DNA of 64,000 nt from an uncultured virus (IMG/VR IMGVR_UViG_3300047491_000541) (Duplodnaviria; Heunggongvirae; Uroviricota; Caudoviricetes): the IMG/VR virus record IMGVR_UViG_3300047491_000541. One strand, written 5' to 3'. Shown one piece after another: positions 35,871-55,466 of the stretch. The notes under the pieces are model-generated. The model saw only the letters and a list, made by a program, of their open reading frames with translations, searched no databases and was not told the DNA's origin. Numbering within the stretch: the stretch's first letter is position 1; every line of letters begins with the position of its first letter. The position numbers and the translations under genes are program-made.

Positions 35871-36317
35871 TTATTCCAACATAGTCCGTAACCGCATCAG
35901 ACGGCTACAGAACTCGTCACTGGTCAGGATCGTTACTTTGGGACTAGCCTTGCCTATGGAATGAGTTAGGACGGCATCTCCAGTCGCCCTAAGAGCCCTC
36001 CTGAAACTCTCGCTCTGATCGAACATCTCGCGATAGGCTAGATCGAGAAGCCTCTGATATTCGTCCGAGTCCCTATTGAAGACCTCTCCCTGCCAAAAGA
36101 GTTGCCTTGTCACCCACCACTTTTCACCTCTTCCAAAGACCTTGGCATTCCATCCAGTCAGAGCACAAACATGCTGCTGTGTTTCTTTATTCGAGAATTT
36201 TAGACTCTGCAACCAGCCTTCAAAAGACCGACACTCAACCCCATCAAACACAAAAGGATGAGACGCAAAATTGCTCAACGCACTGGCTGGATATTCATTT
36301 TTTGAGCCGATGTCCAT
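35871..36317 (-). CDS. T4 gp30.3-like / NADAR-family protein
   Basis: ALSNFASHPFVFDG..SFEGWLQSLKF..LFWQG..FRRALRATG..LTHSIG..TILT.DEFC. Confidence 0.7.
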   Translation of the reverse strand: MDIGSKNEYPASALSNFASHPFVFDGVECRSFEGWLQSLKFSNKETQQHVCALTGWNAKVFGRGEKWWVTRQLFWQGEVFNRDSDEYQRLLDLAYREMFDQSESFRRALRATGDAVLTHSIGKASPKVTILTSDEFCSRLMRLRTMLE

Positions 36318-36664
36318 CTTACATCACGTTATTGTCTCATACCGGGCTGTACGGTGTATACTCTTTACACGTTCGCGTTGCCGTTCTTCCTTTCATGCAA
36401 GACCGCTGATCCATACATGTGATGAATGAATGAGCGCAGTCGTCGCATGTTGCGGCCTTCATGGCTACATGGCCGCATGTAAGACACCGAACACATTTGC
36501 TGGGTCTATTCGTCACTCGCTGGCGTTCGTTATTCAATCCTCACCTCCATCGTTGTGCTTGCACTTGTGAAAGCGTGCCTTGAGCCGTGCGAAGCGTGGC
36601 GCGAACGTGCGCCCACAGTTGAAGCAGATCGCTGCGCCCGGGTGCCGGATGCGCTCGACAATAG

Positions 36665-36765
36665 GACTAACCATGCGCCGGACCGTACCGGCAATAGTCA
36701 CAAACCGTTTCTTCATAGTCTCAACTTTCTCCTGCTTTTGCTGGCCGGTCAGCTTGTCGTTCGGT
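36665..36765 (+). repeat. attC-like site (101 bp) with a gene start in its loop
   Basis: GACTAAC..GCCGGACC / GGTCAGC TTGTC GTTCGGT; loop holds RBS and ATG of MKKRFVTIAG. Confidence 0.65.
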
Positions 36766-37738
36766 ATCACACGCTCCGTTGTGGGTGTGCCGTCGAAGAA
36801 ACACAGATTGCGCTGTGCTTCATCCAGCGTTGGGAAAGAATCACAACACGCCGCTCCTACCCATGAATTGATCCACGCATCAACCCACCACCAGTGCACC
36901 AGCCAGTGCCGTTGCTGGATCACGTATTCCTTACGCCCGTCATGCATTGTCCGTTCAACGATTCTTGCCTTCATGTCGTCTCTCCTTTCGAGGACGCGCC
37001 AATAACCGCGTCCTTAGTTGCAATAAATGGCTCATTATTTCTCTTCGCCATCTTTTAGTCTCACCATTATACCCAGACGATGGTTCTGGACATCTCCCAC
37101 TTCCGCGCTATCCATCCAGCGTGAAAGTCTGTTGTCGTCGTCTCTGTTCCCGTGTTCCATCCATCCAAACAAAGACAGAGAGTGGACGGAAGAGACAAAC
37201 TGTGTTTCCATCACACCTTCTGTACTTTCACAATACAAAAACCGCTTGCTCATTTTTCACCTTCTTTTGATTGGACATCCCGCCAGTAGCAAAACTGGTC
37301 GCCAGGAACGTATTCAAACACTCCAAAGTCAGGTTGTCCCTCCGGGATTTGATTGCCGAGGCACCAATCCCGCCACCCGTTATCGACCCTCAATGAGATA
37401 ATGCTGTGTCCAGTCGTCGCGGTGCGACTTGTCCCAATTCCCAATGCCATCATCGTCCTTCTCCTTGTGTTACGGAACGCCCAGCATACTTTGCTTCGCG
37501 TCGATATAAAGCTGAGCTTGATAGTTGGGCGGCAACGTAGTACGTGCAACCTCAAACGCCGGATGGTCTACAGGGCAACGCGGATGCGTAGTGTCCACGA
37601 TCCGTGCAAGCACACGCTCAAGGGTGCGTATCCGCATATTGGCGGCTCCAAGCATCGTATCCGCATCGCCCCGGGCTTCTTCACAAGCTGACTCATATTC
37701 TTTATAGTTCATTTGTCTTTCTCCTTGTGTTGCGGAAC

Positions 37739-37797
37739 TCCCAACAAGGCGCTCCAGTTGACTTCACTTCGTTCGCGACTGAGCTTTGCCGTTCGGC
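37739..37797 (+). repeat. attC-like site (59 bp)
   Basis: TCCCAAC AAGGCG CTCCAG..CTGAG CTTTGCC GTTCGGC; extra C in L''; R'' matches GTTGGGC at 37524. Confidence 0.85.
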
Positions 37798-37951
37798 GCA
37801 TGTGTCCTGTCAGATGCATAAAGGTGCTCCGCTTGGCATTTACGGCATTCCAACAGGTTGAGCGTGACCGATCCTTCCTTCGAGTTGTCCGCCTTCAACA
37901 CGTCGAAACGGCGACTACCAAGCGTAACCCACTCGTGGTGGCAGAAGGCAC

Positions 37952-38052
37952 GCCGAACCAAGGCTCGCAGCGCACCCAAAACCCGCGCAATAGTTGTTCT
38001 CATATTCGGTCCTTCTCAGCGGTTTTTGGGCTGCTGAAGCCCATCGTTGGCC
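37952..38052 (+). repeat. attC-like site (101 bp)
   Basis: R'' GCCGAAC exactly complements GTTCGGC at 37791; CCCAAAA/TTTTGGG inner arms; R' GTTGGCC. Confidence 0.8.
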
Positions 38053-38397
38053 TTCGCTAGTACCTGTGCTATGTCTGACTCGACCAGCGTTGTCGGGTCG
38101 TCATTGTCACGCCTATAGGCGATCTCGTCGGCGGCGCGGGATAACAAGTCCAAGAAGTCGTCCAAGCGTACGGCTTCGCTGCCACTCGACTTCACGTTGT
38201 CGAGCGTCTCCTCGTTCCCAAACTGCGCATCGGGGTTTGACGGACGAACATCCTGCACCAAATTGCGGATGTCACGCATAGCCTCCATCGGCAGATCGAA
38301 TGCCGGCTCAATCAGTTCGTAATCAGGGACGTATCCGCGTTTGGCGTTGATGTTCCACAGCCGTATGGTCGCGAGCACGATATTCTGTTCTCTGTCG

Positions 38398-38595
38398 CTA
38401 AGGTTTTTCATCGTCTTCTCCTTCCAGGAAAGCGGCCCACTTTGCTTGCCGCTGAGCTTCTTCGACGGCTTCTTCATACCGTCGCTGTCTGAAATCAGGC
38501 AGCAAAGGAGCCAAGTCACCGTATTCGTCACAAAAATGTTCCCACTCAGCATCAACCTCCGAGCCGTGTTCTGAAAACCATTCGTCAAAAGTCAT
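38398..38595 (-). CDS. small acidic hypothetical protein
   Basis: MTFDEWFSEHGSEVDAEW after GGAGG; paralog at 47.9-48.0 kb. Confidence 0.6.
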   Translation of the reverse strand: MTFDEWFSEHGSEVDAEWEHFCDEYGDLAPLLPDFRQRRYEEAVEEAQRQAKWAAFLEGEDDEKP

Positions 38596-38754
38596 ACTAA
38601 CCTCCATCAAACGGTTAGAGCGTATTCGCTACGCTCTCCGCTCATCCTTGTCGTTGGCCTTCGCTAGTACCTGTTCTATGTCTGACTCGATACCCGTTAC
38701 CGGGTCGTCATTGTCACGCCTATAGGCGATCTCGTCGGCGGCGCGGGATAACAA

Positions 38755-38806
38755 GTCCAACAAGTCGTCCGAGCGTACGGCTTCGCCGCTCAACTTCACG
38801 TTCGGC
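38755..38806 (+). repeat. attC-like site (52 bp)
   Basis: GTCCAAC..GAGCG / CGCTC..GTTCGGC; degenerate copy at 38148-38202. Confidence 0.7.
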
Positions 38807-39037
38807 GGTACATGGCACACCACCGACTTTTCATCGAGTCTGCGTGCCAGATACTCTATGCGGTCGTATGTCCAGGCATAGCCATAACACCACAGCCACA
38901 GTCCGTCATGCAGGTGAATGAGCCGCGATCCGTCTCCGTTTCGCACCACACTTCCTGGCGGGAGTTGTGCCACGTTTGCGGCAGTTACTCGCTGCCCCGG
39001 TTCAGTTGTGCCCATCAGTCCAGTCCCAGCACGAAAC

Positions 39038-39135
39038 GCCGAACAAGGCGCTGCTGCCAACATGGTGTGGAGACTCGCTTTACTTTGCATTTGGAGTCCT
39101 TTCCTCCCCGCCACACGGCGGGGCTTTGTCGGCCG
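39038..39135 (+). repeat. attC-like site (degenerate R'), paralog of 47111
   Basis: R'' GCCGAAC complements GTTCGGC at 38800; aaggcgctgctgccaacat..ctttgcatttggagtcctttcc shared with 47111-47205. Confidence 0.65.
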
Positions 39136-39597
39136 GCAGAAAGTACCGATACTTTGCCAACGCTTCGCCTTCCGGCACATATCCGACCCTCCGCCCACGA
39201 ACAAGTTCACGAAGTGGCGTGATGAACTCAGTCGTGTACGGATACGACCCGTTCGCAAACGACGGTATGACGTTTTGCGGCCCGATTGCCGCATAAAAAG
39301 ACTCCATGTCTACTTCTACAAATGCGGTCATCGAACTACCTCATCTTTGTCGTTTGGTCCATATAGATTTCCTGAAGCTTCCCAGCATCCCAAATCTTGT
39401 GAAGTGTCCACATAACTCAGCTCCCTTTCCGTTTCTTCACTACAATCCGGTATCGCTCCGGGACACTCTCCGGCGATGCCAATCCCGTCCGCTGCACGTA
39501 TCGGTAAATTCGTTCGGCATGGGCGTGTCCACGCTTCTTCCGCTGTCTAGCACTTGCGTCTTTCACGATTTTACCGTGGAGCCTCCCTATCAGACCA

Positions 39598-39984
39598 TTA
39601 GACCAGCTCTGCGACGAGCTTGGTCGTGATCTTGCCAGCGCAGATCGTGGTCGTGGTCGCCTTGATCGCCGCAATGGCCTCTGCCGCCTTCGCCTTCAGG
39701 CCATCAACGAGGGCCTCGTCCGCCGTCACAGCCTCACGAACTAGGGCGTCCACCGTGACGCCATTGAGCTTCGAGAGAGCCGCAGCCAACAGGAGCCACG
39801 GGTCCGCCTTCGCCACGATTGCCGACTCGTAGTCATCGCCCTTCTTGAGCGAACCCGTGATCTTGACCGTGAAAGACACAGGATACTCACCGGCTTTCAC
39901 ATTCGCCCCGGCTGCCTTCATCGCCGTATCCTTGATGACCTTCGCCAGAGCAACCACTTCCACGCTTTCCATTGCCTTACTCAT
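39598..39984 (-). CDS. Ala/Lys-rich hypothetical protein
   Basis: ORF from MSKAMES downstream of a promoter motif. Confidence 0.7.
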   Translation of the reverse strand: MSKAMESVEVVALAKVIKDTAMKAAGANVKAGEYPVSFTVKITGSLKKGDDYESAIVAKADPWLLLAAALSKLNGVTVDALVREAVTADEALVDGLKAKAAEAIAAIKATTTTICAGKITTKLVAELV

Positions 39985-40028
39985 AACCGTCTCTCTCTTG
40001 TTGTTTGACTTAATCCCCTTACACCCAT

Positions 40029-40054
40029 ACATTACCGGAATCCAGTCAGAATAA
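40029..40054 (-). promoter_or_regulatory. conserved phage promoter-like motif
   Basis: TTATTC-N12-GGTAATGT. Confidence 0.7.
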
Positions 40055-40127
40055 GGAATAAAAATGAAAAATCGGCAGCCCATCAAAGCCTCCGAACTTA
40101 TTCACCATCAAGCACTTACGTCATTCA

Positions 40128-40610
40128 TCAGACGGAATCAGCCACATTGAGCGATATTCCTCTCATAAGAGATGGTTTTCGACGAGCTGGTTTTCGTTCT
40201 CCGACGGCAAACCGGATTTCATATATCCGTCTTGGATCGAGCCGTTTGATCGTATCTGAAACAGTCTCCCGGAATTGCTCTTGTCGCATCTCCTTGAACA
40301 GCCTCTCGTCCCCAATGTCTTGTTTGCCTCTCCCAACATCGCCATAAACGAAGATGAACTCGTGAGCATTTTCTCGAACTAGAGTCGGCTCCTTGAACTT
40401 GAAAGCCTTTCCATTGATCGTCAAAATCAGTTCACCAGCAAAGACATCTCGATACACTTCATCTATATAACCAGAAACTTTCTTTCCTGTCTCCGCATGA
40501 ATGAATGATACCATCCGATGAAGCATTCTATAAACAACATACCGATCACTTCGTGATGAATGCGATGTTTTGAATAAGCCTGCAGGTATTTCCAATTCAG
40601 GTTCCTTCAT
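40128..40610 (-). CDS. hypothetical protein
   Basis: 160 aa, AAGGA RBS. Confidence 0.65.
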   Translation of the reverse strand: MKEPELEIPAGLFKTSHSSRSDRYVVYRMLHRMVSFIHAETGKKVSGYIDEVYRDVFAGELILTINGKAFKFKEPTLVRENAHEFIFVYGDVGRGKQDIGDERLFKEMRQEQFRETVSDTIKRLDPRRIYEIRFAVGERKPARRKPSLMRGISLNVADSV

Positions 40611-40689
40611 ATCTAATTCCTTTCTTCCGTATAAATAGCACGATACTGAATCGCCGTCAAGCCCCGACCCTAGAGATGTTTACAGGAAA

Positions 40690-41667
40690 TCAATCTGAAC
40701 AAGCTCTCTGCATCCGCTTCAGATACTCCGCCAGCCCCTCCCGCCACGGCATGGGCGCAGTGCCGAGCAGCGCGGTGATCTTGTCCTTGGACAGGACCGA
40801 ATAGGCGGGGCGCCGCGCCCGCGTGGGATAGGCCGCCGTGTCGCACGGCTCGATGCGGCAGGTGCCCGGAACCATGCCCAGCCGCCGTCCCTCCCCGGCG
40901 ATGGCCGAGGCAAATTCATACCAGGTTGTTTCGCCGCCGTCGGTGACATGGTAGATGCCGGAAGCATCGGGAAAGCGGGTGATGAGCGCCAGGATCACGG
41001 CGCAGAGCGAGGTGACGCGGGTAGGCGTGCCAAACTGGTCTGCGACCACCTGGATGCGTTCCCGCTCACGCATCAGGCGCAGCATCGTATGGACGAAGTT
41101 GCCGCCGTGGCGCCCGTAGAGCCATGCGGTGCGCAGAATGATCGCGCCGGGACAAGCCTCCAGAACCAGTCGCTCGCCGTCCGCCTTGGTCTGCGCATAG
41201 ACGCCGATTGGGCAGACGAGATCATCCTCGACGTACGGACGGCGCCCTGTACCGTCAAAGACATAGTCCGTCGAGAGGTGGATCAGCCGCGCGCCGCAGG
41301 CGGTTGCGATCATCGCGCAATTGGCCGCGCCTTGAGCATTCAGCCGACGCGCCTGATCGGAATCATCCTCCGCCCGGTCGACCGCCGTGTAGGCGGCCGC
41401 GTTCACGACCCAGTCAATCCGCCGTCCCGCCGCAAACGCCCGCAGCGCCGACGCATCGCCGATATCGCATTCGCGATCCGTCCCCACGCAGGGCCGCCCG
41501 GCGGCGGCCAGCGTCTCGGTCAGCTCGCGCCCCAGCATCCCTAGGCAGCCGACCACCCACACCGCCGCCGGTTTGGCACGCGCTTCCGCGATGGATGCCG
41601 CACGGCGGCGCTTTACAAGGTCTTGCATCATGTCTATCAGTGTCATTTGTTCCTCCATGCCAGACAC
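40690..41667 (-). CDS. rfbD: dTDP-4-dehydrorhamnose reductase with foreign N-terminal extension
   Basis: GCLGMLG, NAAAYTAVD, HLSTDYVFDG, YAQTK, LRTAWLYG, VADQFGTPT, RRPAYSVL. Confidence 0.93.
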   Translation of the reverse strand: MSGMEEQMTLIDMMQDLVKRRRAASIAEARAKPAAVWVVGCLGMLGRELTETLAAAGRPCVGTDRECDIGDASALRAFAAGRRIDWVVNAAAYTAVDRAEDDSDQARRLNAQGAANCAMIATACGARLIHLSTDYVFDGTGRRPYVEDDLVCPIGVYAQTKADGERLVLEACPGAIILRTAWLYGRHGGNFVHTMLRLMRERERIQVVADQFGTPTRVTSLCAVILALITRFPDASGIYHVTDGGETTWYEFASAIAGEGRRLGMVPGTCRIEPCDTAAYPTRARRPAYSVLSKDKITALLGTAPMPWREGLAEYLKRMQRACSD

Positions 41668-41725
41668 CCAACAAATGGCGTTAGCCTACTTCGCTTCGCT
41701 CCGAGGCTGCGCCCCGTTGTTGGCT
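41666..41725 (+). repeat. attC-like site (60 bp)
   Basis: ACCCAAC..GGCGTTAGCCT / AGGCTGCGCC..GTTGGCT with CGCTTCGCT loop. Confidence 0.8.
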
Positions 41726-42479
41726 GTTCGGACGATCAAGAAAGCGTATCTCGATGCCCCAGTATCCCCATCCGATCATCAGCGATGCAGCGCATTGCCC
41801 GTTGTGCCGCTCGCGCAACCATAGTCCGCAGGACGGCCACAGGATAAAAACGTCATCTCGGTATGTGTGGAACTCAACCATGTAAACCTCCGTCTGAACA
41901 TCCGGCCATTTATTGGCCGTTATTGAGGTGTATCGCGCTGTTGACCCGCTCGATCAGCATAATCACGGCTCGCTCGCATCTTGCCTTGCCGGTCATTATT
42001 CAATCCCTAGCGCTTGGCGCATCTCTCTACGCGCTTGCTTTGCTCCGCGCTCAGTCCCGGCCTTGTGTCCGGCGAGCCATGCGTCCTTTACCTGCCGCAA
42101 CACGTCTTGTTCGTGGGAGTGTTCTCCGTTCATCAGCGTCATGAACTCTCCATCGTAATCCCACAACTCGGCCCGCTTCTCAGTCACGGATTCGCCGCCA
42201 TTCCCGCCGACCAGCGTGTCCTCAAACAGCAATGCGCTCACGTCGTCGCCCAGGTCGTAATTGCCTTTCGGTTCAATAGTGCAAACCATCTCACTCCGCT
42301 CGAAGTTTGATTTGTCATTCATGCCGCTTGCCTTTCGATAGGTTGTCGCTTGCCCATGTTGCATTCTACCCGGATTGCACCTTGCTCTTTCATCTTTTCC
42401 TTCCCGCCCCGGCTTGTGTTAGCTAGGGCATTGACGGGACGCTATTCAGTGCCCGTCATGCTGTTGTTATGCGCCCTAT

Positions 42480-43103
42480 TCATTGCTCAAAAAAGTCCTG
42501 ATAGGCCGTGCGACACGCCGTGCAGCCACACTCGCCTTTGCATGGGTCATTGCACTTTGCTGTGCACGTACACGGGATTCCGTCATACGGGTCAAAGATG
42601 CGCGAACCAGCGCCTCCACATGTATTCGCCTTGTTGGCAGGACAATCGGTGCCGGATGATTTGCAGTCGTCATGCGTGCGTTCCATAATGGTTTCGATTT
42701 CACCAGTTTCCCGGTTGATACTGGAGTCGGGTCCGTACTTCTCACAAACAGCATCGCGGTAGAGCGCGTCACCCTTGGCAATGAGCTTGTAGCCTTTGGC
42801 GCGGAGCGCGTCACCTTTGGCAAGGAGATTGCGACCTTTGGCGAGGAGCTTGTAGCCTTTAGCAATGAGCCCGTAGCCTCTGGCGTAGAGCCTGTTTTCG
42901 CCAGCACGGAGTCCTTGACCTTCGGCATGGAGATTGTCGCTTTTGGCAAGGTGCTTGTCGCCTTCAGCGCGGAGCTTGTTGCCTTCGGTAATGAGCTTGA
43001 CGCTTTCATAGAGGGGCCTGTCTCCTTCGACGATGAGCTTATTGCCCTCAGCGCGAAGCTTGTTGCGTGCTTCCCATGCGTCTTGAATCGGTTCGTGTTT
43101 CAT
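42480..43103 (-). CDS. orphan heptad-repeat family protein fused to a Cys-rich C-terminal module
   Basis: MKHEPIQDAW..GEIET, then CTCTAKCNDPCKGECGCTAC. Confidence 0.75.
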   Translation of the reverse strand: MKHEPIQDAWEARNKLRAEGNKLIVEGDRPLYESVKLITEGNKLRAEGDKHLAKSDNLHAEGQGLRAGENRLYARGYGLIAKGYKLLAKGRNLLAKGDALRAKGYKLIAKGDALYRDAVCEKYGPDSSINRETGEIETIMERTHDDCKSSGTDCPANKANTCGGAGSRIFDPYDGIPCTCTAKCNDPCKGECGCTACRTAYQDFFEQ

Positions 43104-43141
43104 CTACTATCTCCACCCGACCTTATCGTCTGTCATTAAGT

Positions 43142-43879: not shown

Positions 43880-43942
43880 GCAGAACAATCCGATGGAGAA
43901 CTATCGCCGCTTCGCGCCGAAGTCTCGGCTTTGTTGTCCCCA
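43880..43942 (+). repeat. attC-like site (degenerate)
   Basis: GCAGAAC..GGAGA..CGCTTCGCG..TCTC..GCTTTGTT. Confidence 0.55.
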
Positions 43943-44941
43943 ACCACCCGCGCATCCCGATCCATCATACGTTTCTCCCGCCGTGTCACCCACCCTGCAC
44001 GGCTCGACGCCGACGCATTGCTGTGACGCCGAAGCGTCGTTGCCAATGCGCCGCGCTCGTATGCCGACTTTTCCCAATCGGCGACCGTGCCGCACAAAAT
44101 ACGAAATGGCTTGATCTGGATAATCATCTTATAACCTCCTCGCCGTTCGGCGACTTCATCGCGATGTACTCCTCGAAAATCATTCGCAGGTCTGCGGCGC
44201 GACAGTTGCCGATGATCCTTGAACCAGGCTCCCACGAAATAGCGCAGCGCAGGCCGTGGGCAGCAACCGAAAGCAGGTCTCCGTCAGTGCATGTCGTCGA
44301 GCCGTCCGGTTCATAACTACCGTATGTCCGCTGTGCGTCTTTGTCATTCATGGTGTTCTTCCTGTGCCGCCGGAGTCTGACCGGCGGCGTTGTTGTGGCT
44401 CCGCTTCGCCTTTTCCTTGCGTGTATTCCACGCCCGCTTTCGGGCGGCGGCGGACGGCTGGCCCATCGCAAAACCCTTCTTTACCTTGGCCCGCCCCCCG
44501 GCCTGCGGGCCGGGGAGCTTCCATTCGTGATTGCAGGCGGGACACTTCATCGCAGTACGATCCCCTGTGAATCAAATGGCGCGAAACGCGACACCCAACT
44601 TTGGGTGTCCCCAAAGCACGCCCGCCCGATCCATGCGAAGGATGGAACGTCTTCCGTGTCAATCGTTCTTGCCCAGACGACCAATCCAAACAGTAGCCAC
44701 TCCTTTCGGAGTGACTGCTGTTCGAGAGATTTCCTAACGACTCGTAGTCGCACTTCGACTTTCACAAAGTCACCTCCTCTTCCATCCGCTTCACACACCG
44801 GAATGTCGGATCTCCGCCACAAACGCCGAAAGTCTTGCGGACCTTCTCGGCCCATTCGCGGACTTCGGCGAGTGTGGCGAACGTCTTGGTTTCTTCCGTT
44901 TCCTACACCGTCACGATGTACTGTTCTGTTTTCATGGCGCC

Positions 44942-44970
44942 ATTATCACATAAGCCGTTATGCCAGTCAA
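44942..44970 (-). promoter_or_regulatory. sigma70-like promoter
   Basis: TTGACT-N17-GATAAT. Confidence 0.5.
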
Positions 44971-45443: not shown

Positions 45444-45926
45444 TTATTGGCCGTTACTGAGGTGTATCGCTCTGTTCTCACACGGCATGTTCGGAGCATG
45501 AGAGTGCCCACACCTGTCGCAAAGGTCAGCCGTATGTCGCTTCAGCCCAGACATGTGCGAACAAGAGCATTGAGCGCGACTCGCTACCGCTCGCGGCTCA
45601 TGCTCGGCGTTATGCGTCGCTAGTGCAGCCAGGAACTCCCTTACCCTCTGCATTAGGTACTTGTCGCGCACTCGCTCGACAACGCCGCAGATTCCGCCGT
45701 GGTGCTCTTCCCATCGTCGACAACGCCGCTTGTACAGGTCTAGCATGTCGGCAAACGTGTAGGTGTTCCACTCGTTACTCCGGCCTTCTTCCCATCGCCA
45801 ATGCCATTGCGCCGCCAATTCGGCCTCTTCAAGCGCCAACAACTTATCGTCTGCCGTTCTAACTATCTCTGTCAGTACATCGCCAATCTGCCCTTGAGTT
45901 GGTTCATTCATTTGTTCCTCCTCCAT
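45444..45926 (-). CDS. cassette-fusion hypothetical protein
   Basis: 160 aa reading in frame through attC 45556-45615 (HNAEHEPRAVASRAQCSCSH). Confidence 0.55.
   Translation of the reverse strand: MEEEQMNEPTQGQIGDVLTEIVRTADDKLLALEEAELAAQWHWRWEEGRSNEWNTYTFADMLDLYKRRCRRWEEHHGGICGVVERVRDKYLMQRVREFLAALATHNAEHEPRAVASRAQCSCSHMSGLKRHTADLCDRCGHSHAPNMPCENRAIHLSNGQ
45556..45615 (+). repeat. attC-like site (60 bp)
   Basis: TGCGAAC..GCATTGAGC / GCTCATGC TCGGC GTTATGC; extra T; R'' 6/7 with GTTCTCA at 45474. Confidence 0.85.
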
Positions 45927-46130: not shown

Positions 46131-46275
46131 GGCGCACAAGGCGGCTCATCCCTACGACTGGCCTGTTCCTTGGTCGTGCTATCGTTCTTCTTCATGGTCG
46201 TGTTATCGGTCTTCTTCATGGTCATTCCTCCTTTTGTTATTTCCGGCCAGCCGAGGCTGACCGATGGCGTTACCC
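46131..46275 (+). repeat. long attC-like site, family ending GGCCAGCCGAGGCTGACC
   Basis: CCCTACGACTGGCC / GGCCAGCCGAGG arms; related ends at 50155, 50899, 51226. Confidence 0.55.
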
Positions 46276-46578: not shown

Positions 46579-46639
46579 ACCCAACAACGGGGTGCAGAAC
46601 TACCTCTCTTCGCTCGGAGTCTGACCACGAGCATTCGGC
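46579..46639 (+). repeat. attC-like site (61 bp)
   Basis: ACCCAAC..GGTGCAGA / TCTGACC..ATTCGGC; extra G in the left arm. Confidence 0.75.
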
Positions 46640-47163
46640 CTAAAGATCACCACCGCGCTTGCGAACGGCGCACAGTTGTTTGGTGCGTGTCGCCCATCGG
46701 CCACTGAAGGCGTCACTGGGCGGATGGATTTGCCGCCGGTCGTTTGGAATTTTAGTCGTCCGCGCACAAATCGGATTTCGCCTTTGATGGCATATTCATG
46801 CCACCATACTGAATCCGTCCGCGCTGGCACAAGGCACACCACAGTCGCGCCGTATTGGCTTTCCATGTAGGCTTTCTCCACCCACGCACGTATGACTTTC
46901 GCGCAGCGCGGTCCGCTGGTATATGGCGGATTAAGCCACACTGTTTCACCCGTCCACGATTGTTTCAGGCCGTCATCCTCCACCGTGTAGTGCTTAACGC
47001 ACTTGGCATTTTCGTGAGTGCTCGCAGCATCGAGCGTGAATCGAAACTCGGCGTTGAGCTTGTCGAAGAAGTCCTGCGGAGTGGCCCATTCTGATGTGGA
47101 CGCGCTAAACGCCGAACAAGGCGCTGCTGCCAACATAGTGTTGAGATTCAGCTCACTTTGCAT
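46600..47163 (-). CDS. phage-type DNA N6-adenine methyltransferase
   Basis: EWATPQDFFDKLNAEF.FTLDAA, DDGLKQSW, WLNPPY, LVPARTD..WW, GRLKF, APFAS; start MQSEL inside an attC loop. Confidence 0.88.
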   Translation of the reverse strand: MQSELNLNTMLAAAPCSAFSASTSEWATPQDFFDKLNAEFRFTLDAASTHENAKCVKHYTVEDDGLKQSWTGETVWLNPPYTSGPRCAKVIRAWVEKAYMESQYGATVVCLVPARTDSVWWHEYAIKGEIRFVRGRLKFQTTGGKSIRPVTPSVADGRHAPNNCAPFASAVVIFRPNARGQTPSEER

Positions 47164-47205
47164 TTGGAGTCCTTTCCGCCCCGCCGCAGAGCTTGGTCGT
47201 TGGCC
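47111..47205 (+). repeat. attC-like site (95 bp)
   Basis: GCCGAAC..GCTGCTGC / GCAGAGC TTGGTC GTTGGCC. Confidence 0.75.
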
Positions 47206-47817
47206 GGAAGAAGATGGAGCTCGAACAGGTTGTAGCATGGATGGCACTTTCCGATTTCGTCGGTGCATAGCCACCGCTGGTCGCCAATGTGCTTCGTCAG
47301 CGTGACGCGGAGGCGAGAACTGACAACGAATGCCTCGCGTCCAACAAGGCAATCGAGAGGTACGGCAACCCGCCGCCGGGGTTTCTTCTCTTGCATCACA
47401 GTCCTTTCTTGGCTGGTTGCCCATCACCGCTGGCGTTGGGCGAGGGAGGATTGCGCCTCCCCGCCGCGCGTGTTACAGCTCAATGCGCGATAACAGGTTC
47501 TCCATGCTCACGCGAAGCTGTTCGTTTACCCGTTCAGTAAGGCGTTCGATCTCTTCAGCCATTGGGGCCATCTGTTGTCGCGGTGCCGTGGGCTTCGCTT
47601 CGCACGGCGTGGTGTTTGGCCGCAGGACCATACAAATCCGCTGTTCGAGTTCGATGTAGACATCTTCCAAGTGCGCTATGGCATTCTCCAGCCTCACCAT
47701 TTGCTCCGTAATTTGCGGCTTCTGCTCTTCTACCGCAGCTCTGATTGTGCATCTCGATTCCATCTTCGTTCTCCCTGTCCCCCCGTGTTTTGTTGTTGCT
47801 GGTCGGACTGGGGAAAC

Positions 47818-47877
47818 GCCCAATCAGCAAATACAACCTATCTCGCTCCGCTCGAAGTTTGATTTATCACGTCGGCC
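47818..47877 (+). repeat. attC-like site (60 bp, degenerate cores)
   Basis: GCCCAAT..AAATACAA / TTGATTT..GTCGGCC; GCTCGAAGTTTGATTT shared with 42298 and 50511. Confidence 0.6.
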
Positions 47878-47920
47878 TTGACGCATATTGGGATGTTGGC
47901 TTCATTGTACCGCTGCATCT

Positions 47921-48258: not shown

Positions 48259-48318
48259 ATTGAACAAAGTTATTCATGCTACCTCCCTCCTCTCGGAGCA
48301 TGACGCTCCGTGTTCTGC
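48259..48318 (+). repeat. attC-like site (60 bp)
   Basis: ATTGAAC..TTCATGCT / AGCATGA..GTTCTGC; ATG of MNNFVQC in the arm, GGAGG in the loop. Confidence 0.65.
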
Positions 48319-48635
48319 GGATGCTTCACGGCCTTGACGCTTATCGGGATGTTCGCCTTACGAATCACAACCTCGATGCGCGACTTACCAACGGGATTTG
48401 CCGAATGGCATCGAGTTCCGTCTTTCGGCCATACGCCATGCGCTTCCATCCAACACACAACCTTGTACCCGGTATCATCGCCTCCGAGGTCGTGATCCAG
48501 GCTGCACTCTACGACGTGCCCCTGTTCCAGAACGGAAATGGCTTCCGCGCTCGTCCTGGCAACAGTCCATCCGTAGAGCCCAAACCGTTCAGGATCGCGT
48601 TGATCGTCGACGAAAAGGCGAATAAGAGGATTCAT
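48279..48635 (-). CDS. cyclic-phosphate-processing receiver-like domain protein
   Basis: LFVDDQR..ART..EAI..SLDHDLG..TGY..HSANPVG. Confidence 0.75.
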   Translation of the reverse strand: MNPLIRLFVDDQRDPERFGLYGWTVARTSAEAISVLEQGHVVECSLDHDLGGDDTGYKVVCWMEAHGVWPKDGTRCHSANPVGKSRIEVVIRKANIPISVKAVKHPQNTERHAPRGGR

Positions 48636-48675
48636 GCTACGTCCTTTAGGCCGAGCATGATGCTCGGCGTTCGGC
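48617..48675 (+). repeat. attC-like site (59 bp)
   Basis: GGCGAAT..TTCATGCT / AGCATGA TGCTCGGC GTTCGGC; paralog of 48259. Confidence 0.65.
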
Positions 48676-48754
48676 GGATGCTTCACGGCGCCGTTGATCG
48701 TCTTGTCATTGTCCATCGTTTCCTCCCGGCGCGGATTCATCCGCGCCTGACTTG

Positions 48755-49198: not shown

Positions 49199-49430
49199 TC
49201 ACTTGTTCGCCTTATCAAGTCCGAGAACGAGCCTTTGCTTGTCCCAGATGATTCTGATGACTTGTGCGAGCTGAAAATCCACCATCGGCTCTAGTTTGAG
49301 CGCGACTCGCAAGTCCACAATTGATCCGTGGATTGCTTCATACAACTTTTGTTGCTTGTCTGCTGGCAGTTTCATGGTTCCTTTCCAGACGCCGAACCCG
49401 GCGCACGTCGCTCCACTTTGTCGTTCACAC

Positions 49431-49778: not shown

Positions 49779-49804
49779 CGCGAAGGTGAGGCGCAGCGTT
49801 CACC
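49760..49804 (+). repeat. short attC-like site
   Basis: CGCGAAC..CTTCACC GCGAA GGTGAG..GTTCACC. Confidence 0.55.
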
Positions 49805-50478
49805 ACCCGCTTCCGTTCCGCCTGCGTCAGCGTCTTAGTCTTTCCCCTGCCCATGCGCCCCAGTGATTGCGCGGCCTTATTCACAGACATGGGATAACCT
49901 CCGCTTCACCGTCCAAGACCCACCGGCAAACCGTCCCGGTTTGCTCGGTCGCACCCTTTGCCAACCTTGCGCGGTGCACCTCGGTGTATGAGGTGCCCGG
50001 CATTCTGCACATCGGCAAGCCTCCGTCGCCGAACCAAAACTTTCCGCGCCCGTTGCCACGCACGATCTCCCGTCCGTTCCCGCCAACCATTGTCCATGCC
50101 TGCACGCTACGGGTGTCCCGCGACGACTTCTTGGTTGTTTTCATGTTTCATTTCGGGCCAGCCGAGGCTGACCGTTGGCGTGACTGGCATCCCGCTGTCG
50201 GAGCATACCGTTGAGGCAGAAGTTGAACACCGCCAGCAGCTCGTCCGGCTTTGCCGGTCGCCCCCACGCGGCGACGTACTGCTCGTCAATGTTACGCAGT
50301 ACCGGCCCCATCAGGTCGGCTGGGCCGTCCCCGTTGTACATCTCGTCCTCGGCATCACGCCCCGGCACCGCGTTCACCAGTTGCGGATTCGTCGGACACT
50401 TATGCGAGCAGTCAATCTGCCCGCGCTCTACGCTGTCGATTTTCCACCAGCCCATGACTCGTCTCCTTTTAATGCGCA

Positions 50479-50538
50479 CGCGAACAACCGCGTGCAGTTT
50501 ACGTCGCTTTGCTCGAAGTTTGATTTGTCGCGTTCGGT
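50479..50538 (+). repeat. attC-like site (60 bp)
   Basis: CGCGAAC AACCGCG..GCTCGAAGTTTGATTT GTCGC GTTCGGT. Confidence 0.65.
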
Positions 50539-51106
50539 TTATGGATTTCCTCGTATAGCAGCCCCGTCAGACGCATGATCCTTAAAGCGCGCGGCAAGTC
50601 GAACGGTGGAAGACTGTGAGCGTATGCCAGAATTGGAGCGCACACCGGGCACGCCTTCACTTGGCCGATGGTGGCAGAACAATGCGGTTCAGCCCTACGA
50701 CTGGCCCGCGCCTTGGTTATGCTTGCGGTCTTCTTCATGGTCTATCCCCCCTTGGTGTCTCCTTTCGATGAAAAAAGCCTAACACCCAGCTTTAGCCGTC
50801 GCCTGAAGCCTCGCCCGATCTGGGGCGTTCTGCGACAGCATCCACGCAACGGTTGTGCTAACGGTCTTCTTGGTCTTCTTGGTCTTCTTGGTCTTCTTGG
50901 CCAGCCGAGGCTGTCCGCTGGCGTTCGCCGTACATGCTTTCTGTGGACCAGCGTGGCAATGGTGGCAGAAGCCATATCCGCACCTGACGCACACTGGTCC
51001 GTTGTGGAAATCGCTCCCTTCGTAAGCTAAGATGTCCAGCGTTCCGTCTTTGTTGCACTTCCATACGTGACCACGAGCACCCCGTTTCGTTTCATAGGAA
51101 CGAAGC

Positions 51107-51258
51107 GGCGAAGAAGGCGATACAACCCTGCGGCTGGTCCTCGCTTCGGTTGTGCTAACGGTCTTCTTGGTCTTCTTCTTGGTCTTCTTCATGGTCTTCT
51201 TCATGGTCTGTCATCCTTTGTTATTCCGGCCAGCCGAGGCTGACCGATGGCGTTCCCA
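51107..51258 (+). repeat. long attC-like site with KKT microsatellite in the loop
   Basis: R'' GGCGAAG vs upstream GTTCGCC (50923); ggtcttct(t) repeats. Confidence 0.5.
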
Positions 51259-51695
51259 TCATACATTACCGAGTCCGGCAATTTATTAGGCATATCGCGC
51301 TATTCGGCTTCATCGTTTCGGCGTACTTCGCAGGGTCGATGTCTCGCAGTTCGGCCAGCATCTCAAGCCCGATCCTCCCCCACGTCGTAAGCGGAATCTT
51401 GTCTGGGTTCAGTATGTGCCGAGCAAGTCGATAGCAGAGCCCAGCTAGTTGCTCCTCCGTATTACGGGGAGCTGCGGTCGTTTCAGGTGTTGGCATCGGT
51501 CTCCTTTCGCTCCCCGTTTCCGGGAAGCACGGCGTTCTTGCCGCATAGCGGACTGTTGGCCTTCTCGCGCCGTTGCCACACATCAAGAGACATTTTGAGC
51601 GGCGCCGATATTGGACACCATGTACTTTGGTGCCAGACGAACGCGCCAAGGTGGTCGTACTCGATCTTGTCAGGCGTCTGCCCACAGAACGGACA

Positions 51696-51774
51696 GGCCA
51701 ACAAGTCAGCGGAGGTTATCTCCATTCCGTCGCTTCGCTTCTTCGTTTCCGAAACCTCACTTTTGTTGTTGGCC
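51696..51774 (+). repeat. attC-like site (79 bp)
   Basis: R'' GGCCAAC exactly complements GTTGGCC at 51555; GAGGTT/AACCTC arms. Confidence 0.75.
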
Positions 51775-51936
51775 TCGTTGACGCATAGCGGGTTGTTCGG
51801 CATGTACCCTGCACGCAGTGCGTCACCCAATGCTTCTTTTGCAAGTTCCGATGGCTCTTCGCCGATGCTCACCATGTAGCGGCACTGGTCCTTCAACGCA
51901 TCGGCCAGCTTACATGCGATCTTGAATGCTTCAACC

Positions 51937-52009
51937 GCCGAACAAGGCGGTTGAGCCGTACATTCATTCCGCTTCGCTTCATTCATAACGCTCACCTTTC
52001 TAGTTCGGC
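51937..52009 (+). repeat. attC-like site (73 bp)
   Basis: R'' GCCGAAC exactly complements GTTCGGC at 51795; GGTTGAGC/GCTCACC with extra T. Confidence 0.85.
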
Positions 52010-52220
52010 GCAGACAACCACTTTGCAACGTCCGACGGCCTTACCATGCCGTCGCTCGTGCGCTTCCGCTGCCCACGGCCAAACGTGTCCGGGTCCATCC
52101 CACGTATCGTCCACGCCCCGGCGCACCGGCGTTCACCATGCTCGCTGTACGCGACGACGTTTCCACCGCGTCCGACTCGCCACCGCCACCTTGTCCCGGA
52201 AACGGTCAACAGACGACCGC

Positions 52221-52296
52221 GCCGAACAAAGCGTCGGAGGCTACCTTCATTCCTCGCTTCGCTCGTCATTTCGGAGCCTCAACTTTCTAGTTTGTC
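52221..52296 (+). repeat. attC-like site (76 bp)
   Basis: R'' GCCGAAC exactly complements GTTCGGC at 52003; GAGGCT/AGCCTC arms. Confidence 0.8.
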
Positions 52297-52544
52297 TCGA
52301 AGACGTGGAACACCTGCGCCCCTTCACGCATCTGGACCGTGCCGACGTACTGCCCCGGCTCGTCGGGCAGGTAGAGGCCCGTCCAGTACACGCGGAACGT
52401 GCGCGGGCAGGTTTTCGCGTTTGGGTCAACCAGCGCCCACAGGTGCGGCTCGCCGTGTTGATCCTGAACCGCCAGCAGCTTCGCGCCGTGCGGCATGTCG
52501 ATTGTCGTTTCCGGTTTCAGTGTCCATTTCCAAATCGTCTTCAT
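52287..52544 (-). CDS. small conserved phage protein
   Basis: MKTIWKW.L..MP.GA..L.VQ.Q..LWALVDP..TG..YVGTVQ..FHVFE pattern. Confidence 0.65.
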   Translation of the reverse strand: MKTIWKWTLKPETTIDMPHGAKLLAVQDQHGEPHLWALVDPNAKTCPRTFRVYWTGLYLPDEPGQYVGTVQMREGAQVFHVFETN

Positions 52545-52579
52545 CGTATCGTATTCTTTCCGCACTGGCCGACCAAGAA

Positions 52580-52637
52580 GGCCAACCAGCACATCGAAGC
52601 GACGGCTACCCGCCGCGCTTCATGCTTTCTTTGGCGG
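52580..52637 (+). repeat. attC-like site
   Basis: GGCCAAC..ATCGAAGCG / CGCTTCAT..TTTGGCG; next R'' CGCCAAC at 52831 matches. Confidence 0.6.
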
Positions 52638-53104
52638 TACGCTGGCGCTGTCGGTGCTCCCGGCAGTGGTCCGCGCGGCAGTAGCCGCCATTGTGCTTGG
52701 TCATAGCCTCGCATCCGGGCAGGGCGCAACGGTGTGCCGTGCGCTCAGTGGGTCGGCGTATCCCGCAGGCCGCAAGCGCCTGTTGTGATCTTTCGTGGTC
52801 TCCTCTCGCCATCAAAGTCCAGACGGCACCCGCCAACAAGGCGGTGGAGAGAGCCTGGTTATCCGCGCACTTGCTGCTTGTCGTCATGACGTTTCCACTC
52901 CCCATTATTGCCCCATCTCGTCTGTGAAGTACCAGGTCGTCCCGTTGCACTTCGGGCACTTTGCCTTTTCAATTTCCGCCTTTGCTTCTTCCCTCGATAG
53001 CCGCTCCAAGACGATGCCGAACGGTTCTGTTTTCTCGAAGCCGTCCCTGTTCTCACAGTCCTTGCACCTTGCCCAGTTTACCGACTTTCCCATGTGTCCT
53101 CCAA

Positions 53105-53386
53105 TCAACGTCCTCCATCGTGCCGAGGCGCATCCCCGTCGTTGGAAATCATTGCAAATCCGTCGTCTATCCGTTTTCGGAGCGCGTCTGATGTCGGAAG
53201 GTCTAGCATTGACGCGCCGACCGGACACACACGCGCCGGGAACTCGTGCTTGCGGCATTCATCCGGTCTGCGGTCGTAGATGCCGCAGAATACGAACGCC
53301 CCGCGTTCAACAAGGTGCGGACATGGTTTGGGAGCAGACAGAGGTGACATCCGCTTACAGCAGTCGCCACAGTGCAGACAGTACAT
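53105..53386 (-). CDS. YkgJ-family (CxxCxxCC) Fe-S/Zn cluster protein
   Basis: CLHCGDCC..CPHL..CGIYDRRPDECR. Confidence 0.75.
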   Translation of the reverse strand: MYCLHCGDCCKRMSPLSAPKPCPHLVERGAFVFCGIYDRRPDECRKHEFPARVCPVGASMLDLPTSDALRKRIDDGFAMISNDGDAPRHDGGR

Positions 53387-53862
53387 TAGCGTACCTCCGA
53401 TCCAGAATATACCGACAAATGGCTGGTGCCTACATCGTCCCGCCCCGGCACATCACCGGAGTTATTGCCACACATCGGGCTGTTCGCATACTCAAACCGC
53501 TCGCGCATCTGTCGCACCTTGTCATGCGGCACGCCGTGTACGTTCTGCCACTCTCCACGCATCACGACTTCACGCACTTCGTAGCCGAGGCGCTTTGCCA
53601 CAGCGCGATAGTATTCCATCTCCCACAGGCGGGTAAACGTGTTTGAGACGACGCACGGGCGACCGGCCTCCATCGCCTGACGTGCTTTTTCCTGACACCA
53701 CTCGTGCGCCTGTTTGATCTTCTCCGGATCATATCCGCCGTTGGCGTCAAACCACTTGTCAGCCTCATAATGATCTGGAATGCCGAGCGTTTTGGCGTAC
53801 GTGGTCTTTCCACTTCCCGGCACGCCGCGAATCAAATAAAGAATTCGAACAGGGGTCGTCAC
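53386..53862 (-). CDS. P-loop polynucleotide kinase-like protein (AAA_33)
   Basis: LIRGVPGSGKTT, EAD, AHEWC, VVSNTF..WEM..Y, NVHGVP. Confidence 0.85.
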   Translation of the reverse strand: MTTPVRILYLIRGVPGSGKTTYAKTLGIPDHYEADKWFDANGGYDPEKIKQAHEWCQEKARQAMEAGRPCVVSNTFTRLWEMEYYRAVAKRLGYEVREVVMRGEWQNVHGVPHDKVRQMRERFEYANSPMCGNNSGDVPGRDDVGTSHLSVYSGSEVR

Positions 53863-54123
53863 CGTACACCTCCCACTGCGCGTCCGGTTGCCGGTGCGCC
53901 TGTGCGTTCGCCGTCTTTCCGTATATCGGACTGTTGGCCTAGAGCAATGCTTCGCATTTTTGGTCTTTCAGAACTCCGTCTTCCGCTCGTGCCTGTCCGC
54001 AGAACCCGAGAGAACACGTTAGATTCCCGCCCTCGTTTGAGAAGTGTTCGCAAATTTCGCGTTCTCCGAAATGCTCCCAGCAGTACGACCCGCTCGGAAC
54101 TTTTATCGGCAGGTTGACCTTTT

Positions 54124-54420
54124 TCATGTTCTCCTTTCGCACTGGCCGATGGCTGCGAGGGCGTAGCGCAGTGCCCGTTCTAGCTTTGCCGTTTCGTGTC
54201 CACGTTGTGCAAACTCATTCGCCCATTTCTCAGTCATGGCGGTCAGTTCGGTTTCGAGTTTTTGAATCCGCTCGATAGCCGCTCCTACCGTGTCGGATGA
54301 TCGCTTGTCTCCTTGACTCAGTAAGGCTCCTTGCAACTGTTGCAAGGCGCTTGTGAGGGTCAAGGACTGGCCTTGCTCTATGCTGTCCAGTTTAATAGTC
54401 GTATCCTTTTCGTTCTTCAT
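54124..54420 (-). CDS. coiled-coil hypothetical protein
   Basis: ORF from MKNEK downstream of a promoter motif. Confidence 0.5.
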   Translation of the reverse strand: MKNEKDTTIKLDSIEQGQSLTLTSALQQLQGALLSQGDKRSSDTVGAAIERIQKLETELTAMTEKWANEFAQRGHETAKLERALRYALAAIGQCERRT

Positions 54421-54451
54421 GCCAGCACTATCGCATAACCATTTCATACAT

Positions 54452-54477
54452 ACATTACCGAATTTCGGTCAGAATAA
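54452..54477 (-). promoter_or_regulatory. conserved phage promoter-like motif
   Basis: TTATTC-N12-GGTAATGT. Confidence 0.7.
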
Positions 54478-54607
54478 GAAAAAAATTTTTCAGTTTTCAC
54501 GGTTTTACCATATAAGTGAGATTTCTCACCCCTTATGCCAGTCAATAACAATTTTTTCAATTTCTGTCGCTCGGAAGGGACCGGAATCCCAAACAGGGTC
54601 TCGGAGC

Positions 54608-55438
54608 CTACGGGTTCCCGCGAGGTTCTAGCCCAGTGTTGGCACTACTGACGCGCCGCCTTGCCACCCGGCAAAACTCTTCATTCGCGTCAATTCCGAT
54701 GTACTTTCGCCCTGTCTCGTTGGCGGCTTCCGTTGTCGCGCCTGCACCGTTGTGCGGGTCAAGAACCACGTCGCCGGGGTAGGTGTAGAGTTTGATGAGC
54801 CTGCGCGGTATCTCCACCGGGAACACGGCTGGGTGTTCCTTGCAAGACGCCCCGCGCACGAACCACACGTCCAGCGTCCACGCCATCCACTCCGCCTTCG
54901 TCATATCTCCACGGACGCACAGGCCGCGCCCTTCACCTGACAACACCCGCCGACCGCGCCCGCCCTTCGAGAAAATCAGGATCGGTTCAGATGCACACCG
55001 TATGCTCGGTCCAGACGGGGAAAGGTACGTTCCCCATCCACAACCTCCGCCGCCACACCCGCCGCTTGTGTGGACGTTGTTCGAGTCCCCCTTGATCCAG
55101 ATGATCTTGTCAAGCATCGTCCATCCAACAGCCTTCGCCACGGTCTTGAACTGGAAAGGAACGTCCCGACGGGGCTTCTTACCCATCCACCACGGTAAAT
55201 TGACAGCAAGGCGGCACCCTGGCCGCGTCACCCTGAAAACTTCGCCAAGCCATGCTTCCGTCTGGCTCCAGTAGTCGCCCCACGGCAGAGCATCCGACGT
55301 TGTGCCATAGTCCTTGCCGCAGTTGTAGGGCGGCGAAGTCACGGTCAGATCAATGCACTCGGATGGGAGCGAAGACAAGACGGCCAGACGGTCGCCGTGG
55401 ACAATCTGCCCCAATAAAGCGGTGGAGGGTACGCTCAT
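54608..55438 (-). CDS. beta-class N4-cytosine/N6-adenine DNA methyltransferase
   Basis: IDLTVTSPPY, HPAVFP..IPRRLI, VLDPHNGAGATT, YIGID. Confidence 0.9.
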   Translation of the reverse strand: MSVPSTALLGQIVHGDRLAVLSSLPSECIDLTVTSPPYNCGKDYGTTSDALPWGDYWSQTEAWLGEVFRVTRPGCRLAVNLPWWMGKKPRRDVPFQFKTVAKAVGWTMLDKIIWIKGDSNNVHTSGGCGGGGCGWGTYLSPSGPSIRCASEPILIFSKGGRGRRVLSGEGRGLCVRGDMTKAEWMAWTLDVWFVRGASCKEHPAVFPVEIPRRLIKLYTYPGDVVLDPHNGAGATTEAANETGRKYIGIDANEEFCRVARRRVSSANTGLEPRGNP

Positions 55439-55466
55439 AACGGCAGAATCCTTTTGATTTCTCCTT

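Follow-up and report, generated by a model that had tools for sequence, protein, structure and literature searches.

The stretch of DNA analysed here, the window, comprises the 64,000 nucleotides (nt) of IMG/VR record IMGVR_UViG_3300047491_000541, from an uncultured virus of the Caudoviricetes. Its credible genes lie nearly all on the minus strand (matches of phage type to Pfam and PHROG were obtained among 119 minus-strand open reading frames, ORFs), and among them stand imperfect hairpins with the anatomy of attC, the recombination site of integron cassettes. A sequence-only reading, made without database searches, had pointed to such hairpins in 36300..55440, antisense to every gene and with no integrase in view. 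The observation of these hairpins is real and is confirmed here: 20 sites are found at E < 0.01, all 20 of them on the plus (+) strand, opposite the genes that have Pfam support, and 15 of the 20 fall inside that region while five lie outside it.

Along the + strand each site runs from a 7-nt box ending in AAC (R'') through a 5-nt spacer, a left arm, a loop that often includes CGCTTCGCT, a right arm and a 6-nt spacer to a 7-nt box that begins with GTT (R'), and the left arm exceeds the right by one or two bases, which lie near its positions 4 and 11. The sites were scored with a covariance model, R1, made from 11 window sites chosen by eye and with an architecture scan, and run, as the sequence-only reading had advised for a model of this kind, on both strands of the whole window, with filters off. 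Forty-five matches were obtained at E ≤ 10. The 20 sites at E < 0.01 measure 52-95 nt, with 11 of them at 58-61 nt; most keep both boxes, and nine to ten combine scores of 43-82 bits with intact boxes and a covarying stem. Five weaker + matches in the region have E values of 0.05-0.5, and the only minus-strand matches at E < 0.2 are reverse reads of the sites at 41666 and 51696, whose outer boxes are self-complementary. In the alignment of the 11 seed sites 83.5% of cells are paired, against 67.3% in shuffles, and 0 of 500 shuffles match the observed value; the inner helix is 87.6% paired, with changes on both sides in 9 of 11 inner-stem pairs, and pairing falls to 29-42% if the partner is slid by 1-3 columns. 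AAC is present in all 11 seed sites and GTT in 10, the remaining one having ATT. The extra bases had been said to lie always on the left, and they nearly always do: among the 12 E < 0.01 sites recovered by a scan with fixed 5/6-nt spacers, the left (+) arm accounts for 20 of the 22 bulged bases. Wobble pairs in the inner stems, which might betray the folded strand, are balanced in the window, with G.T on top 7 times versus A.C on top 7 times. Hairpin scans by minimum free energy with DNA parameters missed most sites, the stems being short and bulged, and returned many false peaks from the repeat genes at 15-25 kb; a comparison with Rfam at its gathering thresholds matched nothing in the window, a result that is silent on attC, since the attC coverage of Rfam is uncertain.

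The sites extend beyond the region first marked out. One cluster, at 3.2-3.7 kb, consists of a site at 3179-3250 (R1 82.0 bits, E 6.8e-19; R'' TGCGAAC and R' GTTCGCA, 5- and 6-nt spacers, two left-arm bulges), a site at 3393-3464 (75.4 bits) whose R'' exactly complements the R' of the first, and a site at 3604-3673 (68.9 bits) whose R'' GGCGAAC exactly complements GTTCGCC at 3458. A second, at 27.5-27.9 kb, holds sites at 27457-27529 (33.5 bits, E 2.9e-6) and 27859-27918 (58.3 bits). Within the region, the site at 37739-37797 (57.3 bits) has an R' GTTCGGC (37791) that complements GCCGAAC at 37952; it is followed by sites at 38602-38659 (24.4 bits) and at 38755-38806 (24.3 bits), the latter with an R' GTTCGGC (38800) complementary to GCCGAAC at 39038, where a degenerate homologue of site 47111 without GTT in its R' begins (39038-39135, 10.1 bits, E 3.4). 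The site at 41666-41725 (57.7 bits on +, 19.4 on minus) lies directly upstream, in the sense of the gene, of an rmlD-like gene. Sites at 43880-43939 (20.4 bits, E 0.0073) and 45556-45615 (32.9 bits) precede one at 46579-46639 (43.0 bits), in which R' reads ATTCGGC and the TTCGGC tail complements R'' of the long, 95-nt site at 47111-47205 (25.0 bits). Farther right are sites at 48259-48318 (24.8 bits), 48617-48675 (30.4 bits), 50479-50538 (20.4 bits), 51696-51774 (67.3 bits, self-complementary R boxes), 51937-52009 (68.0 bits), 52221-52296 (68.3 bits, R'' exactly complementary to R' of site 51937) and 53844-53912 (20.0 bits, E 0.0095). All of these are on +, as is a short hairpin followed by GCGTT at 46245-46270, which resembles the right half of a site without a left box; this element, repeat family D20, has four copies (46245, 50156, 50899 and 51228), each upstream of a paralogous small gene.

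The canonical attC geometry was calibrated on an integrase-bearing bacterial contig. When 185,579 species genomes were scanned with a motif, 69 loci emerged, six of which (L032, L055, L057, L077, L079 and L085) have R1 matches at E < 0.01. L079 (G001:C4), a 5.8-kb contig of a Smithella metagenome-assembled genome (MAG), encodes an integron integrase that scores 448.6 bits on TIGR02249 (cut-off 265), and upstream of it three R1 sites (65.5, 44.2 and 33.3 bits) lie on the strand opposite to the integrase and on the same strand as the cassette ORFs between them. A second integron of this MAG (G001:C142; IntI 422.7 bits, R1 site 49.5 bits) has the same layout, and integrases above the cut-off are also present in Nitrospirae and Opitutaceae MAGs with R1 sites. 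In a 39-site alignment the boxes, spacers, bulge positions and loop motif are common to the window and the bacterial sites; judged by this homology, the window sites belong to a real integron attC family. In many Acidobacteriota MAGs (L024-L027, L029, L038, L039, L042, L049, L050, L058, L068, L070, L080, L082 and others) the scan pattern matched at an identical length of 42 nt with no R1 match, and this is another conserved sequence.

In a complete bacterial integron the forward matches of R1 share the strand of the cassette genes, and by this comparison the + strand of the window is the attC top strand, as the sequence-only reading had held. The same strand is fixed by the 5- versus 6-nt spacers together with the side of the extra bases, and by the ends of a duplicated unit, described below, at the GTT of the right-hand box. 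The reciprocity of neighbouring boxes, which had been put forward as a further proof of strand, carries no such information: where R' of one site complements R'' of the next, the two boxes form an inverted repeat that encloses the inter-site segment and reads identically on either strand, and we dropped it as evidence of strand because of this symmetry.

Relative to this top strand the genes are inverted. Six ORFs in 36300-55440 pass the Pfam cut-offs and all are on the minus strand, and 0 of the 108 plus-strand open frames of at least 110 amino acids (aa) in the window have a Pfam match at E ≤ 1e-4, which agrees with the earlier claim that all credible ORFs are on minus. In the canonical cassette the ORF is promoterless and is on the top strand with attC at its 3' end; here the sites are on + and the supported genes on minus. 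Since the genes lie opposite the top strand, attC stands at the 5' end of its gene, and the bottom strand, the one on which integron integrases act, is the sense strand of the phage genes. The loop often contains the ribosome-binding site and start codon, and the preceding gene ends within or just beyond the right-hand box. The Dam methyltransferase cassette gene, for example (46600-47163 in ORF 46600-47427, minus strand; PF05869, 94.7 bits), starts in the loop of site 47111-47205, which holds its ribosome-binding site and ATG, and has its 3' end inside site 46579-46639. Likewise, the loop of site 52221-52296 holds the start of ORF 52000-52269, whose TAG stop is in the right spacer of site 51937-52009, the loop of which contains the ATG of the next gene, while the minus-strand DUF7352 gene (Pfam; stop codon at 52287) stops in the right spacer of site 52221-52296. 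Site 51696-51774 has no in-frame stop, and a 181-aa frame (51483-52028) reads through it. The proteins encoded at 38016-38552 and 38629-39091 have in common a C-terminal module of ~50 aa that comes from the duplicated unit and differ in their N-terminal parts; Dam and the 38629 ORF, which encode unrelated proteins, share an N-terminal peptide, which homologous sites encode in their left half. Fusions of protein modules seem to be allowed by sites that lack an in-frame stop.

If the sites delimit cassettes, a unit would begin with the TT of a right-hand GTT box, end with the G of the following such box and comprise one or a few genes with their own attC. The seven heptamer pairs on which the sequence-only reading had built (3458/3604, 8325/8646, 37791/37952, 38800/39038, 51555/51696, 51795/51937 and 52003/52221) are all exact 7/7 reverse complements. 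The 22 + sites at E ≤ 0.1 form 21 neighbouring pairs, 4 of which agree at all four variable positions where 1.27 would be expected to do so (permutation P ~0.026); for pairs less than 700 nt apart the figures are 4 exact matches in 12 and two more at 3 of 4 bases, and the extra exact pairs 37791/37952 and 38800/39038 involve sites that fall below this threshold. A count that leaves the choice of sites aside finds 339 GTTNNNN heptamers in the region, and for 18 of them an exact reverse complement stands 100-600 nt downstream, compared with a mean of 6.05 and a maximum of 15 in 200 shuffles and 9 of 400 in the reversed sequence. The reciprocity is therefore above chance. At 3458/3604, 38800/39038, 46633/47111 and 37791/37952 the boxes of a site are mismatched with each other, yet its R' fits the next R''.

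The boundaries of repeated and exchanged segments fall at the same place. A cassette-like unit of 160 nt is duplicated at 93% identity (repeat family D17, 38047-38208 and 38653-38806, +), and in both copies the likeness spans the interval between the GTT of the site before it and that of the copy's own site; in the four D20 paralogous genes the 5' flanks are alike up to GCGTT and unlike beyond. On +, these boundaries coincide with the right-hand box, as would be expected if + is the top strand and the crossover occurs at G|TT. The window stretch is also found in contigs of three runs from two freshwater/lake studies (Logan contigs placed at 90% likeness, which show other contexts, not events). 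Contigs of X1 and X3, which are one sample, leave the window straight after the GTT at 38655 in site 38602, an X3 contig leaves it straight before the GTT at 47895, and a joint present in all three runs swaps the first three R' bases, 47871-47873. Most joints have sides of less than 30 nt at 90% likeness and are probably from other organisms; only joints at site boxes were used, and stretches of low or high depth were not counted as evidence of absence. From the ends of the duplication and of the context changes, we predict that IntI would cut R' at G|TT on the folded bottom strand. A repeat of ~20 nt that follows R' boxes and ends in a second GTTNNNN (47878-47901, 48333-48356, 51537-51561, 51778-51801 and 53917-53939) is perhaps what survives, on the right side, of a site that has decayed, or else a secondary recombination site of a simple kind, and in one metagenome contig this motif is joined straight to the DUF7352 segment.

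A recombinase for these sites is not in evidence in the window. Neither PF00589 (Phage_integrase) nor any other recombinase family has a match among the 119 minus-strand ORFs and 108 plus-strand frames, so that the absence of an integrase from view, as first remarked, extends to tyrosine recombinases on both strands of the window. A complete integron has intI beside its array, and within the window there is none. Fifteen further viral records that contain such sites, including five with an estimated completeness of at least 90%, likewise lacked any IntI/Xer-like match at E ≤ 0.001; the integrase model was positive on ordinary Xer-type genes in 14 of 14 control genomes. At least two close attC sites without an integrase constitute a cluster of attC sites lacking an integrase (CALIN), and the window contains 15 sites at E < 0.01 in 19 kb as well as a 3-site and a 2-site cluster. 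Because the sites lie at several separate loci, a single array head (attI/Pc) is unlikely.

The inverted polarity recurs in other viral contigs. Three motif scans of IMG/VR followed by R1 yielded 21 distinct viral contigs with sites at E < 0.01 (the first site pattern gave 14 loci, with real sites only in L010 and L021), and orientation was judged from ORFs near the sites that pass Pfam curated cut-offs. Seventeen contigs have such neighbours: 13 are antisense only (L010, L116, L118, L119, L120, L123, L125, L126, L129, L134, L141, L142 and L143), three, with a single site each, are sense only (L114, L115 and L117) and one is mixed (L021); the other four (L122, L124, L132 and L138) have no supported neighbour. 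When contigs with at least two sites are considered (n = 9), eight are antisense only, one is mixed and none is sense only. The bacterial contigs L079, L107, L077 and L057 are in sense in 4 of 4 cases, and the difference between viral (13:3, antisense:sense) and bacterial (0:4) contigs gives p = 0.007 in Fisher's test. L142, which measures 111,747 nt in IMG/VR, holds a further large array with inverted genes, independent of that in the window: 13 sites of the same family lie on one strand within 8 kb (2569-7649), GC skew is negative, the single Pfam-supported gene (RNA ligase-like) is on the strand opposite the sites, and no protein is in common with the window. In L123 a Dam 48% identical to that of the window likewise lies between two antisense sites, and in L032, a phage-like contig in a Planctomycetota bin, six sites lie opposite operon-like ORFs. 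In L119 a gene for Tad6 (anti-Thoeris; 5632-6012) adjoins antisense attC sites, which places counter-defence genes among the cargo near such arrays. By this small survey, viral contigs that carry multi-site arrays seem as a rule to have them antisense; the feature itself is real and well supported, and its polarity is apparently general.

We consider it likely that the window carries true integron attC sites, present as CALINs in accessory regions of a large freshwater phage, and that their units are moved in trans by an IntI-type integrase supplied by the host. The data show what the sites are, their strand, how the genes are oriented, the lack of an integrase and the ends of the duplication at GTT; the enzyme, its present-day activity and the reason for the inverted orientation are what we infer here. 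In our model, the integrase, coming most likely from the host during infection, would gain, lose and duplicate units by cutting at G|TT of the folded minus strand. The phage appears not to be temperate. GC skew of the + strand is negative almost throughout the window, and the G-rich minus strand hints at, without proving, replication in the direction of the genes; if genes and replication are co-directional, the attC bottom strand would lie on the template of lagging-strand synthesis and would also be the strand not used as template in transcription, and could fold. A sharp increase in cassette excision is reported for attC bottom strands placed on the lagging-strand template (PMC11023631). 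Sites in the foldable orientation would then recombine and multiply, and arrays would grow only that way round, which fits the observation that multi-site viral arrays are antisense and that sense sites are singletons. Two such sites around any phage gene would turn it into an excisable and mobilisable 'backwards' cassette. IntI has also been described to integrate cassettes into GWT sites other than att sites, and in Escherichia coli to do so without strand bias (bioRxiv 10.1101/2022.09.11.507474).

Several points weigh against this model. Recombination is deduced from its traces in a view that spans 64 kb of the genome, and the direction of replication is read from GC skew alone. The arrangement is not a pure alternation of site, gene and site, since there are ~20 sites for ~55 genes, many of the sites being half-sites or degenerate, and since long stretches, such as 52297-53843, are free of sites. 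Several ORFs run through sites, so that some 'cassettes' may no longer be separable. Exact reciprocity is limited to 4 of 21 neighbouring pairs, and its P value is only ~0.03 because box diversity is low, GCCGAAC/GTTCGGC recurring. An X3 joint, 51550>52296, puts a different 6-base tail on the DUF7352 segment, which misfits a simple exchange at G|TT. Finally, the orientation survey is small and was seeded with motifs of one attC family, and its neighbours were taken within 1.3-2.5 kb and need not be inside a cassette.

Some of these points would also be accounted for if the array were an inert relic of rare host-integrase or illegitimate events, with an orientation that reflects selection on expression or effects of the hairpins. 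The degenerate and half-sites, the ORFs that read through sites, the low number of exactly reciprocal pairs and the lack of an integrase in the window and in the 15 similar viral records all fit such an origin. We nevertheless think it unlikely, because nine to ten sites at 43-82 bits retain intact boxes and a covarying stem, a unit has been duplicated at 93% identity with both ends at GTT, metagenome contigs switch context exactly at GTT boxes, and viral arrays of 2-13 sites are antisense or mixed while the three sense contigs are single-site. A self-contained system, in which the phage has its own attC-recognising recombinase outside the 64-kb window, seems more doubtful still: the window is part of a genome, and complete integrons have been reported in temperate phages in the main text of PMC9892861, but such a recombinase is on neither strand of the window, and none of the 15 viral records with the same site family, including the five estimated to be at least 90% complete, gave an IntI/Xer-like match at E ≤ 0.001.

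There is very little likelihood that the hairpins are attC look-alikes with a purely regulatory function in the phage, be it translation control, mRNA processing, termination or that of T4-type promoter stem-loops. Box for box and loop for loop they are homologous to sites beside a TIGR02249 integrase, and regulation would leave unexplained both the match between the right box of a site and the next left box and the ends of the duplication at GTT. Ribosome-binding sites and start codons do lie inside several hairpins and stop codons in their spacers, and compensatory changes keep the stem as an RNA role would, and attC sites may have such a role secondarily.

The setting of the array is that of a phage genome. 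By their Pfam and PHROG matches, minus-strand genes of the window encode a NAD-dependent DNA ligase (10578-12632), CobT-like and AAA proteins (31994-35816), a T4 gp30.3-like protein (35871-36317) and an RmlD-like reductase (the rmlD-like gene, 40690-41646), and at the right edge of the array region lies a gene for an N6/N4 DNA methyltransferase (54608-55438, minus; PF01555, 124.3 bits). Megablast of the window against 50,697 phage records gave no match at the DNA level, the gp30.3-like protein has no close relative in IMG/VR, and the contigs with relatives of the methyltransferase, L002 and L003, have no other gene in common with the window and no sites. Phage relatives from metagenomes, L112 and L113, are ~70% identical in the AAA protein and have no sites in the 17 kb available. 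Because these relatives are site-less and the GC content of the array region (0.52-0.60) is above that of the flanks (0.41-0.51), the attC region would be acquired DNA, and its sites look like a lineage-specific acquisition.

A promoter-like repeat of 47 nt on the minus strand (family D13) has eight copies (5, 5186, 13763, 25655, 30424, 34057, 40016 and 54439), each upstream of a minus-strand gene block, and reads as a phage promoter, a putative role; the copy at 40016-40062 is inside the array region, and a variant of the motif occurs at 41902, 45945, 46297 and 51275, where it directly adjoins sites at their right end. The attC region also encloses, at 39598-40610, a pair of low-GC genes that have a promoter-like repeat to themselves; in L112 (9332-10338) their homologues adjoin a homologue of the gene at 29191-30405, indicating that the block has moved. 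The stretch 15300-25400 is occupied by a tandem series of ~22 minus-strand paralogues. Their products measure 90-190 aa and are conserved at both termini, the genes consist of 21-nt (7-residue) repeats, and AT skew in the stretch is strongly negative, at -0.2 to -0.34; a further copy is within the attC region at 42480-43103. In the segments 43968-44606 and 52275-52913 the summed contig depth in the lake metagenomes is ~10x that of neighbouring bins (~1480-1540 versus ~130 in X1), and these segments are probably common to more abundant genomes of the same samples.

The origin of integron cassettes is an open question, and a part for phages in cassette traffic has been raised only recently. Among the integrase-less attC arrays whose description a limited literature search brought up, that of the window is one of the densest, and the polarity of gene and attC in it is opposite to that of the textbook cassette. 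If the antisense rule holds, strand accessibility would decide where arrays grow, two sites flanking a gene would create a new cassette, and lytic phages would use host integrases in trans. The cargo is of kinds used against host defences, methyltransferases here and Tad6 in one related array, and the system may therefore shape phage-host arms races in lakes. Going further, we speculate, as an idea with rather less than an even chance, that virulent phages keep a pool of 'backwards' cassettes, borrow the host integrase in infection and thereby move genes that lie between two sites from phage to phage. Were this true, a bacterial integron that captured a 'backwards' cassette would hold it antisense to Pc and silent, and phages would possess a gene exchange network that parasitises host integrases and offers a natural route to new cassettes.

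In T4-type phages, the repeated promoter-early stem-loops (PeSLs) flank small accessory genes in hyperplastic regions and have been proposed to mediate modular shuffling. A PeSL combines a promoter with a stem-loop and acts through homologous recombination. The window sites resemble PeSLs as generally described in being repeated stem-loops beside small accessory genes, but differ from them in their attC geometry and in their homology to integron sites. Closer to the window are the integrase-less attC clusters of virulent phages reported in 2023, for which the main text of PMC9892861 gives 17 CALINs in 10,705 phage genomes, recombination of 5 of 6 tested phage attC sites with attI1 through IntI1, and a cargo in which DNA methyltransferases are frequent. 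Like these, the window has attC without intI and methyltransferases as cargo. In contrast, the examples figured there have 2-3 sites and cassettes in bacterial orientation, whereas the window has 20 sites in 64 kb at at least four loci, with all supported genes antisense. The main text of that paper uses neither 'opposite' nor 'antisense', and a limited literature search found no title or abstract on inverted attC-gene polarity in phages.

The experimentally inverted chromosomal integron of Vibrio cholerae, as described in PMC11023631, has its attC bottom strands on the lagging-strand template, and the window would be alike if replication follows the genes; there, however, the whole array was flipped together with its genes and the cassettes remain canonical, whereas in the window gene and attC are inverted relative to each other. 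The Smithella integron in L079 has the attC family of the window, with the same boxes, 5/6-nt spacers, bulges and loop motif, but possesses intI and has its ORFs on the top strand of attC, which there follows the 3' end of the gene, whereas the window lacks intI and has its genes on the bottom strand with attC at the 5' end of the gene. Small integrase-less attC clusters in phages were already known, and what is new in the window is the size of the array and the inverted orientation of its genes.

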